IMG/VR virus record: IMGVR_UViG_3300044719_000253
Span: 1 to 64,000 of that record
Length of the DNA: 64,000 nucleotides
Reading direction: 5' to 3' (one strand)
DNA from: a virus
Taxonomy: Duplodnaviria > Caudoviricetes
Part shown: piece after piece, positions 2,668-18,229 of the stretch
Numbering within the stretch: the first letter of the stretch is position 1
Layout: each line of letters opens with the position of its first letter
Notes under the pieces: model-generated
What the model was told of the DNA's origin: nothing
Seen by the model: the letters and a program-made list of their open reading frames with translations, nothing else
Database searches by the model: none
Program-made: the position numbers and the translations under genes

Positions 2668-2973
2668 TTAATGGGTAAGTTCTCGTTCGCGCTCTTGGGC
2701 TTTCGGCGATTCAGGATCATCGTCGAGGACGAGCAACCAGTCTTCTGGACAGTGGCACTGAGTCATGTCCGGCAGGATCCCGTCGTTAGGGGTACGATCG
2801 AAAGGCACTCCGTCGACGTCTTCCACCACCCAGACTTCACCCCACAGTGTGTGCGGGGCACCCGTTTGAATATACCGCGCCGTCACGATACGGCCAACAG
2901 ATTTCCCATTGGGCCCATTTGCGGAACCGATGATGCGACAGCGGGCGCCAGGATATACTTCTTTCTTTGCCAT
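2668..2973 (-). CDS. hypothetical protein (possible SH3-like beta fold)
   Basis: PGARCRIIG..VGRIVT pattern; abuts neighbouring ORF. Confidence 0.65.
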   Translation of the reverse strand: MAKKEVYPGARCRIIGSANGPNGKSVGRIVTARYIQTGAPHTLWGEVWVVEDVDGVPFDRTPNDGILPDMTQCHCPEDWLLVLDDDPESPKAQERERELTH

Positions 2974-3224
2974 TACTGTTTCTCCATTGCTTTAATTTGC
3001 GAGATACGCGCTTCAGACAAACTGTATTTGCGCGCCACATCTTTACCCGAAACCCCATGAGTGAGTTCATACTGCACCATGCTGTTTCTGAGATTGGTAA
3101 TCTGGTTGGCCATGTCGTTCAGCATCTGAGCTTCGCCATTGGTGAGCAGATAACCGGAGGCAATCTCCTTTTGCACAGCGTCGATTTTGAGCTGAGCTTC
3201 TGTCAAGGCTTTATGAAGATCCAT
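2973..3224 (-). CDS. small coiled-coil protein with C-terminal HTH-like segment
   Basis: SGKDVARKYSLSEARISQI is HTH-like. Confidence 0.6.
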   Translation of the reverse strand: MDLHKALTEAQLKIDAVQKEIASGYLLTNGEAQMLNDMANQITNLRNSMVQYELTHGVSGKDVARKYSLSEARISQIKAMEKQ

Positions 3225-3234
3225 GTCGGAACTC

Positions 3235-3429
3235 CTATCGAATCATTGCTTGGGTGTAAACGATAACCTGTTGCGGGGGGAGATGACGATCCCGCGGATC
3301 CAGGCATTCTTTAACGCAGGTCGCGACACCACCCCACAATTCCCAGCCACCGTTCACAGCTGTCAGCACTTCGTTACGAAAATCTTCTGGATCATCCGCT
3401 TCGACAATCTTGTAATCATTCGGTCGCAT
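3235..3429 (-). CDS. DUF1737-like small protein
   Basis: YKIV...V...GWELWGG...YTQAM pattern. Confidence 0.6.
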   Translation of the reverse strand: MRPNDYKIVEADDPEDFRNEVLTAVNGGWELWGGVATCVKECLDPRDRHLPPQQVIVYTQAMIR

Positions 3430-3432
3430 TGT

Positions 3433-4173
3433 TTATCCTTCCGTTTTCTTGACCAGTTTCTTCAGCAAGCCACTGGGTTTGATATCCTTGATATACTGCG
3501 GGCCATTGCGATCACCATGCTTAACCGGGCCATTCGCTTTCAGGACCCGGATCTCGATGGGGTCAACTTTGTTTTTCTTCTTACGCCGTTCTGCACGATT
3601 AACGAACGGGTCGTAGTGAAACGGCACTATGTGAAATTTTGACGAAGTGTCCTGAAACGTACTGGTCAGCATTGCCAGCAACATGGACGTCTTGCCGCTA
3701 ATATTCGAATGACGCCCATGGATGTCGCCCAAAAGCAGTGGCTTAACTGCCGGTACGTCAACCACGAATTTCTTGACTTCCTTCGAAGAATCGCTAATGC
3801 TGCACCCCACCACAGCTGGGGTTGGGGTAACCAACAGCGAAGTTGGGTCCGTGTGGTTCGGTGGGATACCGAGGTATTCCAGCATGAACCGGTAATCATC
3901 CGATGCCGTCTCACCTTGTGTCTGGGCCCGTGCAATAGCGTCTTTGATATGTTGCACGTTCGGCGCTTGACTATAATGGCCAGAGGTCAAGGTATTGAAC
4001 CTGGCTTCACGGCACAGCGGGCAGCGCTTTTCTTCCCCAGGCATATGTCCGGATATACAAGCGTTGCGAATCTTGCGGGAGGTCGCGATATCGGCTTCGA
4101 CATCAATAGCGACCCCGCCACCCCCGAGGGGTTGGATCGAAATCCCTTTTGTTTCCAATGTCATGATATCCAT
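3433..4173 (-). CDS. hypothetical protein
   Basis: ORF with leader motif and SD. Confidence 0.7.
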   Translation of the reverse strand: MDIMTLETKGISIQPLGGGGVAIDVEADIATSRKIRNACISGHMPGEEKRCPLCREARFNTLTSGHYSQAPNVQHIKDAIARAQTQGETASDDYRFMLEYLGIPPNHTDPTSLLVTPTPAVVGCSISDSSKEVKKFVVDVPAVKPLLLGDIHGRHSNISGKTSMLLAMLTSTFQDTSSKFHIVPFHYDPFVNRAERRKKKNKVDPIEIRVLKANGPVKHGDRNGPQYIKDIKPSGLLKKLVKKTEG

Positions 4174-4200
4174 CTCTGTTGTTGGTTATGAAAAAACAAA

Positions 4201-4392
4201 TTAGACGGACGAGCACCACGGATTGAGTCCAAGTACGTCGATCAGTTCCGGGTACAACCGATTCGGCTCCCACTGTATCTTAGGAATCTCTTTTGGAGCG
4301 TATTCTGTTTTCGGAATATCTACCTCGATAACGATCTGTTTCGGTTGTTGCTGGAGGTAATTCCCGTACATCTGTTTACGTGACCCGCACAT
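4201..4392 (-). CDS. hypothetical protein
   Basis: Start moved to ATG 4392 (AGGAG SD) to avoid overlap. Confidence 0.55.
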   Translation of the reverse strand: MCGSRKQMYGNYLQQQPKQIVIEVDIPKTEYAPKEIPKIQWEPNRLYPELIDVLGLNPWCSSV

Positions 4393-9222: not shown

Positions 9223-9654
9223 CTAGGGGCGGTGGGCTTCATACAGGGCACCATTCCAAGTCAACTGGGGGATGCTGATCAATACGACATCATCAAAATG
9301 TGGATCTGGATGGGGGCTATAGGTGTACATCAATAACCCCTCTCGGTTGTACAGATGTAAAGATTCGGCTTGGAAGTAAATCTCCAGCGCCAAGCGTTTG
9401 AGGGCGTTGACCAACTGGGCTTTGCAATTCACCCATACGCCAACATTAGTGTCAAAGTTCTTCACCATCGCCACGATGTGTTCCATTGCTTTGTCACGAT
9501 AACGGACGGCTTCGATCACCACATACAGGATCTCATGAAAGGCTTGGTCAACGTCAGGAGTTAAATTCGGTAACAGAAAACGAAATTGTGTCACCCAACC
9601 TTCGGTATTGATAATCAAGCGCCGATGCGGTTGGATGCATGACTTGCTTTGCAT
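9223..9654 (-). CDS. hypothetical protein
   Basis: AGGAGG SD. Confidence 0.7.
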   Translation of the reverse strand: MQSKSCIQPHRRLIINTEGWVTQFRFLLPNLTPDVDQAFHEILYVVIEAVRYRDKAMEHIVAMVKNFDTNVGVWVNCKAQLVNALKRLALEIYFQAESLHLYNREGLLMYTYSPHPDPHFDDVVLISIPQLTWNGALYEAHRP

Positions 9655-14879: not shown

Positions 14880-15554
14880 TTAATCCCAGTTAGAGGAAGC
14901 ACCGCCACCATCGAAAGTTCCGCCAGCGCCATCATAGTTGGGGGTGGTATCCGTAGCACTGGAAAAGTCCATCACCGCATTTACCGCATTGACGATTGCC
15001 AGCGAGTCGTCGAAATCGTTATTACGGCGCCGACGCGCCTCATCGTTTTCAGCTTCAATCCGTCGCAGACTGGCCAAAGCATCTTGTTCTTGTTGTCGGG
15101 CGGCCAGCAACGCTTGCTGTGCGTTCAGGCCATGGTGGTTGCTGACGGCCGGGGTGTTTTTAGCTTGCGCTAACGCGGCTTTGCGCATTGTATCCACCCC
15201 ACGTTGGGTTTTCTGAAAGCGTTCCACTTCCGGAGTGAGACCCAGATCCTTGGTCGTGATCGCGTGCGGATTACTGCGGTGCATCTGTTCCAGTTTCTCT
15301 AGCCACTGTTGCTTCGACTTGGCGTCATGGAGACGTTGTCGTGTGTCCGACTCATAAAACCCAGCAGTTGCGCGAGTACCAAGTTCTTCTAACGAACGCT
15401 GTTGCACTTCATGCAGATCCTTCGAAATACGGCGGATCGCTTCCGGATGCGATACGGACCGAGTCGTCTCGACACGAATCACTTGCGTGGTACTTTCAGC
15501 TTGAGTTGGTTGCTTCGTTTTGCCGCCAAACAGTTTCTTGAAAAAGTTCCACAT
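14880..15554 (-). CDS. hypothetical protein with Gly-rich C-terminal tail (GGTFDGGGASSNW)
   Basis: True start likely MWNFF at 15554 (GGAG SD); the upstream in-frame extension crosses a terminator motif. Confidence 0.7.
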   Translation of the reverse strand: MWNFFKKLFGGKTKQPTQAESTTQVIRVETTRSVSHPEAIRRISKDLHEVQQRSLEELGTRATAGFYESDTRQRLHDAKSKQQWLEKLEQMHRSNPHAITTKDLGLTPEVERFQKTQRGVDTMRKAALAQAKNTPAVSNHHGLNAQQALLAARQQEQDALASLRRIEAENDEARRRRNNDFDDSLAIVNAVNAVMDFSSATDTTPNYDGAGGTFDGGGASSNWD

Positions 15555-15572: not shown

Positions 15573-15941
15573 ACGGCATAACAAAAGGGTCAAGGGGTGA
15601 GACGCGGGGATGAGCATCGCGGTTACGCGCCACACCCACCCCCGTTCTCGATGACTCCAACAGCATCTGCCCGTCGTGGCCACAACGAACAAACCCATCA
15701 AAGGCTGCGCTCCCATGAAAGGGCCAACATCTTCCAAGCTCCGCTTTCGGTTACAAGGTCGAATCAGACAAAGCACAACTTGCCAACCGTCCGCCACGGT
15801 CCCTTGACAGGGGAACGCGCCAACGCACTGGCCGTACAGTTTCAGCACTCGTGTCAGGAATGCCACTAGACTCCCATCCAATCCCCTACCCTGTGGTCTG
15901 GGGGACGAGAGCAACGGCTACCACTGTTAAGTCCGTTGGTA
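15573..15941 (-). ncRNA. candidate ~370-nt structured ncRNA between hammerhead cleavage site and terminator
   Basis: Many short stems (15786-15800, 15800-15814, 15741-15750, 15594-15643); ends in hairpin plus TTATGCCGT; no SD-linked ORF. Confidence 0.5.
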
Positions 15942-16034
15942 TACATCCCACGCTGGAAATGTCGTGAGATGTTTCGAAGGGTTTGCAACCTTGCCTGTTA
16001 TCCAGGGGCCGACTTCCACGGCTCGTCAGTACCA
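15937..16034 (-). ncRNA. type I hammerhead ribozyme, variant with expanded stem II region
   Basis: Minus strand: TGGTA-CTGACGA-G...C-GAAAC-ATCTCACG-loop-CGTGGGAT-GT-A-TACCA; 5-bp stem I, 10-bp stem III, complete core, GUA cleavage site at 15942. Confidence 0.75.
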
Positions 16035-16262
16035 TTATTTAAAAGGGTGGGTTTACTAAGGTGACCTTAAAGTCTAAACAAGAGCTTTCTTGATACGATG
16101 ATCACTGAATGGACAATGCGACCCGCGGTCGATCCAGAGCAAACCCATTGGACGGATAAACGCAACAGGAGGAACCCAAATCTTAGTTGTAGAGTGTCAA
16201 CAACACAACCCCAGTAAAGTTAAGATAACTCTACTAGACTTAGATTCCTTCTGTCGTATTCA

Positions 16263-16337
16263 TGGTGCCGATAGAGTGAATCAAACACTCGACCTTACGC
16301 TTACAAGGCGTCTGCTCTGTCACTGAGCTATATCGGC
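16263..16337 (-). tRNA. trnT: tRNA-Thr(UGU)
   Basis: 7-bp acceptor GCCGATA/TATCGGC, anticodon loop CT-TGT-AA, encoded CCA; T loop reads TTTGATT. Confidence 0.9.
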
Positions 16338-16892: not shown

Positions 16893-16968
16893 AAAAAAAG
16901 AAGGCTTCATTGGCTGACTCGGGTTTGCAACCGTGTCGCCATGACGTTTTTTGTCAACCAATGAAGCC
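16893..16968 (-). terminator. intrinsic terminator with large loop
   Basis: GGCTTCATTGG/CCAATGAAGCC 11-bp stem followed by TTCTTTTTTT. Confidence 0.7.
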
Positions 16969-18154: not shown

Positions 18155-18229
18155 TGGGCTTGGAGGGGAGATTCGAACTCCCGACCTCTGTCTTGGTTAT
18201 ATGCGCTCTAACCGACTGAGCTACCAGCG
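18155..18229 (-). pseudogene. degenerate tRNA-like element (D and T arms intact)
   Basis: TAGCTCAGTCGGTTAGAGC and GGGAG-TTCGAAT-CTCCC; anticodon and acceptor stems do not pair. Confidence 0.6.

Follow-up and report, generated by a model that had tools for sequence, protein, structure and literature searches.

A complete type I hammerhead ribozyme motif, in which three hairpins take the place of stem II, is present on the minus strand of the window, a 64,000-nucleotide stretch of DNA at the start of a viral record of 226 kb (Table 1). The core, the insert and 11 covarying base pairs are kept in five phages, which upholds the sequence-only reading of a hammerhead with stem II replaced by three hairpins. 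The motif is probably an active type I hammerhead with an undescribed architecture that is selectively maintained and sets the 5'-OH end of the RNA that follows it, termed block C. Catalysis is judged likely from the preserved sequence.

Among small ribozymes the hammerhead has been studied most, and its junction of three helices is regarded as fixed. To our knowledge no hammerhead carries a branch or a long insert between A9 and G12, and every permutation on record retains either a single helix II or a pseudoknot at that position. In the literature searched, no hammerhead has a stem II that branches.

Core, stems and predicted cut site

The ribozyme had been credited from the sequence with all core nucleotides, a 10-bp stem III and a 5-bp stem I, and every one of these elements lies at the coordinates assigned to it. 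The core segments follow each other in the type I order, stem III opens with the A15.1-U16.1 pair (A15972-U15943), and position 17 is an H and not a G. N7 is the sole position of the hammerhead core that is free to vary. It is a C in the window and a U in the other four copies, with the rest of the core invariant. The cleavage triplet is GUA in four of the five copies and GUC in the copy termed L009.

Table 1. Features of the ribozyme locus in the window; RNA strands are read 5' to 3' on the minus strand
Feature	Position	Strand	Sequence or remark
Complete type I hammerhead	16034-15937	minus	UGGUA-CUGACGA-G-three hairpins (45 nt)-C-GAAA-stem III-GUA-UACCA
Stem I, 5' strand	16034-16030	minus	UGGUA; partner 15941-15937
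Core C3-A9	16029-16023	minus	CUGACGA; only N7 varies
Hairpin 1	16022-16008	minus	GCCG-UGGAAGU-CGGC; first G is G10.1; identical in 5/5
Hairpin 2	16006-15994	minus	CCUG-GAUAA-CAGG; stem covaries
Hairpin 3	15992-15977	minus	AAGG-UUGCAAAC-CCUU; identical in 5/5; drawing with a GCAA tetraloop also possible
C11.1	15976	minus	invariant in 5/5
Core G12 A13 A14	15975-15973	minus	invariant in 5/5
Stem III	15972-15963 with 15952-15943	minus	ACAUCUCACG/CGUGGGAUGU; 10 bp, one U-G, 10-nt loop
Predicted cut	between A17 (15942) and U1.1 (15941)	minus	triplet GUA; from hammerhead core geometry
Stem I, 3' strand	15941-15937	minus	UACCA; would-be 5' end of the released RNA
5' tail	16035..16045	minus	CUUUUA (16045-16040) overlapping the A-rich linker AAAUAA (16040-16035)
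Block B, structured	16048..16147	minus	closing helix UGGGUUUGC (16147-16139)/GUAAACCCA (16056-16048)
tRNA-Thr (UGU)	16263..16337	minus	Rfam tRNA model 64.5 bits; ARAGORN
Block C, conserved structured ncRNA	15580..15941	minus	about 360 nt, cut site to terminator-like hairpin
Hairpin abutting stem I	15914..15936	minus	ACGG-15-nt loop-CCGU; position kept, sequence differs
Motif UUAUGCCGUCAAA	15581-15569	minus	UUAUGC(C/U)GU(C/A)AAA; just upstream of the ribosome-binding site of the MW..KKLFG gene
Downstream gene, 224 aa	14880..15554	minus	MWNFFKKLFGG...; homologous gene after the RNA module in L003 and L009

Homologues and covariation

The genes of the window are densely packed and nearly all lie on the minus strand, and a weak, sub-threshold match of one ORF to chimallin fits a jumbo phage. 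A second assembly of 269 kb from an independent sample is identical to the window over 2.8 kb around the ribozyme. No close kin of the window phage was found among GenBank phages or in the viral collection: blastn against the former matched only tRNA, scans of the latter with single proteins, encoded by the chimallin-like gene and both flanking genes, returned no relatives, and Pfam was uninformative for the neighbouring small proteins. Homologues of three neighbouring proteins led to L003, a complete 272-kb phage (G001) whose neighbour protein is 60% identical, to L006 (79% identical) and to L036 (62% identical); these three are unbiased as to the RNA because they were located via neighbouring proteins. 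L009, the same as L011 and L038, was obtained by a metagenome pattern scan. All four are contigs of related jumbo phages, and together with the window they provide five distinct ribozyme copies, so that all comparisons below rest on five sequences from a single phage clade.

A covariance model built from three of the copies scores the five at 130, 129.5, 119.6, 74.4 and 72.6 bits, and finds exactly one copy per genome in both genomes searched whole. The same model rejected five matches from a scan of genome contigs as chance, and L010, one of three metagenome pattern matches, is likewise a chance match. Patterns derived from the conserved blocks, the anchored loop, an unconstrained insert and block C retrieved nothing new from viral contigs, nor was a ribozyme copy found in contigs of more distant protein relatives (L007/G002, L008, L030-L032, L040, L041). 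G002 (L026, L007) is a complete 322-kb relative with a 70% identical neighbour protein that is without the ribozyme and without blocks B and C, the RNA blocks that flank it; nor was the downstream gene (224 aa) detected there. The ribozyme, the RNA blocks and the gene thus appear to behave as one accessory unit, judging from the one such genome in which this is testable.

Compensatory changes affect three of the five pairs of stem I, six of the ten pairs of stem III and two pairs of hairpin 2, giving the 11 covarying pairs. The GGUA/UACC pairing of stem I becomes CUUA/UAAG in L036 and GCGUA/UAAGC in L009, and stem III ranges from 5 to about 10 bp across the homologues. In the five-copy alignment 95% of cells are paired, and none of 500 shuffles and no slid register approaches this covariation.

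Fold energy, rarity and Rfam matches

The minimum-energy structure predicted by RNAfold is exactly the hammerhead fold (-30.8 kcal/mol), with an energy that is ordinary relative to shuffles (z = -1.18). In three homologues the RNAfold prediction shifts to a competing long-range pairing once the flanks are included. The fold was also expressed as a descriptor comprising five of five stem I pairs, CUGANGA-G, a gap of 2-60 nt, C-GAAA, a stem III of at least 6 bp and U-H. It has one match in both strands of the 226-kb genome and none in 200 first-order Markov genomes.

No ribozyme matches the locus in Rfam at the gathering level. In sensitive mode the window scores 28.9 bits with the RAGATH-1 hammerhead model, whose threshold is 56.3, and the alignment has 40 inserted nucleotides in the loop that stands in for helix II in RAGATH-1. 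This match is unique genome-wide (E = 8.6e-4), and the L003 copy scores 20.5 bits, also below 56.3. The other Rfam hammerhead models, Hammerhead_1 included, give no match at E <= 10.

Pieces of the hammerhead consensus could in principle have met by chance in non-coding DNA, and such an origin would accommodate both a fold energy no better than that of shuffles and a sub-threshold Rfam score, the more so as weak RAGATH-1 matches at E <= 10 occur in 9 of 14 control genomes. It is opposed by the absence of descriptor matches from the simulated genomes and is refuted by the comparative data, namely the covariation and the frozen core in five homologues, which leave coincidence with a negligible probability.

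The three-hairpin insert

Three hairpins had been proposed within about 50 nt between A9 and G12, and the strands of all three lie at that place. The interval measures 47 nt and holds three hairpins, rather than a single stem II, in all five homologues. Hairpins 1 and 3 (31 nt), G10.1 and C11.1 are letter-identical in every copy, and because there is no variation, and hence no covariation, the pairing of hairpins 1 and 3 and of G10.1 with C11.1 is predicted only. Hairpin 2 shows compensatory changes from C-G to G-C in L036 and from G-C to A-U in L009. Its loop differs in sequence and length in every phage, and the single-nucleotide linkers on either side of it vary as well (C/G/A and C/U). Third-codon identity to the window in the adjacent gene is down to 61% in L006 and 42% in L003, and the 31 frozen nucleotides therefore indicate strong sequence-specific selection on the insert. 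Both invariant loops contain GNRA-type sequences, GGAA in hairpin 1 and GCAA in hairpin 3.

The insert can be drawn in two ways. The first possible model is a four-way junction closed by G16022-C15976, the G10.1-C11.1 pair. In the second, equally a model that is possible, G16022 pairs with C16008, so that hairpin 1 serves as stem II and 32 nt are inserted before G12. Neither model agrees with any hammerhead alignment described. Hairpin 1 is thus possibly the true stem II. An insert at the helix II position could also impair the hammerhead core.

The loop of hairpin 1, UGGAAGU (hairpin at 16008-16022), has a 7-bp complement, AUUUCCA, in the loop of stem III (15953-15962, minus strand). The complementarity extends over 6 bp in L006 and 5 bp in L003 and is lacking in L009 and L036. 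A kissing interaction of the two loops within the active fold was rejected on grounds of geometry, since stems II and III stack end to end, and because the stem III loops of L009 and L036 are tiny. The pairing could belong to an inactive alternative fold.

These properties bear on the possibility that the hammerhead is regulated, such that the three-hairpin domain binds a protein of phage or host, a small ligand or an RNA whose presence or absence controls cleavage and release. Hairpins 1 and 3 have the same stem and loop sequences in all five phages, whereas covariation is seen in each of the remaining helices, a pattern expected of a binding site or an aptamer core. The conserved competing pairing of three homologues would disrupt stem I and hairpin 1, and the pairing of the hairpin 1 loop with the stem III loop could, by reasoning, not coexist with the active fold. 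Furthermore, the module and the 224-aa gene are present together or absent together in the few genomes that can be tested. Against regulation, L009 is without the competing pairings, hairpin 1 does not recur as a motif in the genomes, and the insert matches no known aptamer or protein-binding RNA family, as an Rfam cmscan of the insert alone returned only noise (E above 2). We know of no natural allosteric hammerhead. Peripheral loops that do not vary are, moreover, a common feature of tertiary contacts with a purely structural role in hammerheads (PMC3088659, PMC11300833). Judged from sequence, the conservation of hairpins 1 and 3 reflects a sequence-specific constraint that tertiary folding would explain just as well as would gating by a ligand or protein. 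Overall, regulated cleavage is considered unlikely, and so, by a slightly wider measure, is a role of the three-hairpin domain as a sensor switched by a bound protein, metabolite or RNA. If such a sensor did exist, it would be the first in a natural hammerhead and would set the moment at which a structured RNA with a 5'-OH end is released in the course of jumbo-phage infection.

Two further ideas about the insert were discarded. Hairpin 1 is not supported as a repeated protein-binding motif, with other matches in two genomes staying at control level, and a reading of the insert as a tRNA-like cloverleaf or T-arm gained no support from ARAGORN or the tRNA model. Within a 220-nt insert of L003, GCCGUGGAAAUCGGU (9470-9486; G001 164417-164431) matches hairpin 1 at 13 of 15 positions. 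This near copy lies 72 nt before the real hairpin and looks like a local partial duplication. An intergenic sequence of the window, ACGGUUGCAAACCCGA (16919-16934, minus strand), has the GGUUGCAAACC core of hairpin 3 and may be a T-arm-like piece of an odd tRNA-like RNA.

The 5' tail and block B

Directly 5' of stem I all five copies have an A-rich linker, AAAUAA or AAACAA. The hairpin 1 loop, UGGAA(G), can form 4-6 bp with an upstream YUYYA in the five phages. In this tail-loop pairing 87.5% of cells are paired and the changes are one-sided only (C or U opposite G). The inner four pairs are found in all four aligned homologues, and UUCA of L036 was judged by eye. The data are compatible with CUUUUA as a candidate pseudoknot partner of the hairpin 1 loop in this model.

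Further upstream lies block B, which is conserved in the five phages and whose closing helix covaries, being UGGGUUUGG/CCAAACCCG in L009 and GGGUUUCUG/CAGAAACCC in L036. The 220-nt insert of L003 separates block B from the ribozyme, and L006 has an ORF between the last tRNA and block B. A AAGGUCACCUU hairpin about 25 nt upstream was considered as the helix IV of a pseudoknot hammerhead and rejected, as L003 has its 220-nt insert there, without the hairpin. No upstream hairpin occurs at a fixed position across the homologues, and the helix IV that characterises RF03152 is thus lacking.

The downstream RNA and gene

Block C begins at the predicted cut site and is about 290-420 nt long in the homologues, where it occupies positions 9643-9985 of L003, 7923-8262 of L006, 2466-2885 of L009 and about 9168-9460 of L036. 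RNAalifold on four homologues predicts 78 pairs, 30 of which have compensatory changes, and frozen motifs include UGACAC, AAACUGUACG, CUGUCAA, CAAGUUGU, GCAGCC and UGUGGCCA. A terminator-like hairpin and U-tract (about 15643-15580) close the RNA, and clear stem-plus-U-tract ends are also seen in L003 and L036. No Rfam family matches block C. The hairpin that abuts stem I has the form GCAGA/UCUGC in L009 and GUGCGAA/UUCGCCAC in L036. Its loop forms a 5' pseudoknot in which ACAGU (15927-15923) pairs with ACUGU (15840-15836) about 85 nt further on, and this pairing covaries, being ACGAU/AUCGU in L036.

The 120 open in-frame codons upstream of the ATG at 15554 are not protein-like. The motif UUAUGCCGUCAAA occurs once in the window and is present in three phages (also L003 9975-9990 and L009 about 3175). 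It may, judging from its sequence and position, be a promoter or operator.

The ribozyme comes after the final tRNA of an array in each of the five phages. Among the homologues, about 200 to 540 nt separate this tRNA from the cut; in the window the distance is 321 nt from the 3' end of tRNA-Thr, close to the 320 nt estimated in the sequence-only reading. That reading had also argued that the ribozyme is not a simple trimmer of a tRNA trailer, and it holds: the distance between tRNA and cut changes, and the structured RNA that starts at the cut is constant. The attachment of the ribozyme to the downstream RNA, after the tRNA array, therefore fits the freeing of the 5' end of a discrete structured RNA.

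The same context could suit a hammerhead-derived junction that does not cleave and is part of a larger ncRNA formed by blocks B and C, the core being kept as a three-dimensional junction. Conserved structured domains do flank the ribozyme on both sides, the hairpin that follows stem I takes part in the pseudoknot of the downstream RNA, and the insert is at a place where no active hammerhead is known to tolerate one. However, five phages retain every catalytic position, the A15.1-U16.1 pair and an NUH triplet that could be cleaved, and variation confined to N7 is the constraint pattern of active hammerheads. Nor does the ribozyme change in L003, where block B is 220 nt away, or in L006, where an ORF lies upstream of block B. 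A non-cleaving junction is accordingly rated improbable, a little below regulation.

A further conserved RNA, block D, follows block C in L009 (about 2900-3200) and L006 (8262-8376) and is absent from the window. It is complete in L009, and the L006 contig ends within it. In L009 its ends resemble a tRNA acceptor stem and T arm (CCGGGCUU ... GGUUCGAAUCC ... AAGUCCGG) around about 290 nt, so that by its sequence block D looks like a tmRNA or a giant tRNA-like RNA. It is called by neither ARAGORN nor Rfam.

Relation to known ribozymes

The closest known relative is the pseudoknot hammerhead (RF03152, RAGATH-1; Weinberg et al. 2015; crystal structure PMC11300833), which is also of type I, has a helix I of 5 bp preceded directly by an A-rich linker, and shows the canonical CUGAYGA and GAAA core. 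In both, a single possible G10.1-C11.1 pair closes the replacement of helix II and an upstream segment may pair with the loop on the helix II side. The A-rich linker of the pseudoknot hammerhead lies in the minor groove of helix IV (PMC11300833). In contrast to RF03152, the 7-nt loop is replaced here by a 45-nt insert with three hairpins, and no conserved upstream helix IV is present, L003 having a different hairpin there and block B 220 nt away. The candidate pseudoknot also differs, as it would join a single-stranded 5' tail to a hairpin loop, whereas the loop of RF03152 is closed by one base pair. Failing both the score threshold and helix IV, the ribozyme is outside the RAGATH-1 family.

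Type I extended hammerheads of bacteria and phages (Hammerhead_1; Perreault et al. 2011, PMC3088659) share the core, the strand order and the short stems, as well as a phage origin and an intergenic position that is presumed to be a transcript-processing site. They often have pseudoknots between the stem II loop and a tail. Their single stem II, however, has one to a few base pairs; it goes down to one pair and is never branched, and neither extra hairpins before G12 nor a four-way junction is described (PMC3088659).

Engineered aptazymes (PMC12747935) likewise carry an extra folded domain at stem II, the position used to confer ligand dependence, but they are artificial and have a communication helix, and the insert described here matches no known aptamer family. 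Theta ribozymes, which are minimal HDV-like ribozymes, provide another self-cleaving class in phage tRNA regions with a presumed function in the processing of tRNA transcripts (PMC10879173). Besides belonging to a different class, theta ribozymes abut the tRNA 3' end, whereas the cut considered here is 200-540 nt past it and fixed to the downstream RNA.

Proposed mechanism and significance

According to the favoured explanation of an active hammerhead, the ribozyme RNA would be transcribed together with the upstream tRNA array. The core would then fold with one of the insert hairpins stacked on it as helix II. Stems I and II are probably held in contact by the A-rich 5' tail and by the invariant loops of two hairpins, 1 and 3. 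The candidate pairing of the hairpin 1 loop with this tail (4-6 bp) would create a pseudoknot like that of the pseudoknot hammerheads. The RNA would cut itself after A15942. Hammerhead chemistry leaves a 5'-OH on the downstream product and a 2',3'-cyclic phosphate on the upstream product. The upstream fragment would thus receive a 2',3'-cyclic phosphate end, and the downstream RNA would start with UACCA and a 5'-OH, extend for about 360 nt as a pseudoknotted molecule and end at the terminator-like hairpin.

A four-way junction or two hairpins beside G12, in a natural and conserved ribozyme, would widen the fold space of the hammerhead. The branched form would explain why the Rfam match remains below threshold and would supply a new search descriptor. 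It also offers a natural test case for the effect of a stem II-attached domain on catalysis, which is the basis of the engineered aptazymes. In addition, the arrangement points to ribozyme-defined 5' ends for a new structured RNA family, located in the islands of tRNAs and tRNA-like RNAs of jumbo phages of the nucleus-forming type.

tRNA islands of the phages

The tRNA arrays are rich in tRNA-like and Y-RNA-like sequences. Window positions 18165-18224 (minus strand) match the tRNA model at threshold (29.2 bits, model positions 7-64) without an ARAGORN call, and constitute one of several aberrant tRNA-like sequences in the tRNA island. YrlA (Y RNA-like) matches that stay below threshold, the best at 49.9 bits, occur in the islands of L003, L006, L007 and L009, and the related phage contig L040 encodes a TROVE/Ro60-like protein with a VWA domain (2728-4281). 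Taken together, the protein and the YrlA matches hint at a phage Ro-Y RNA system.
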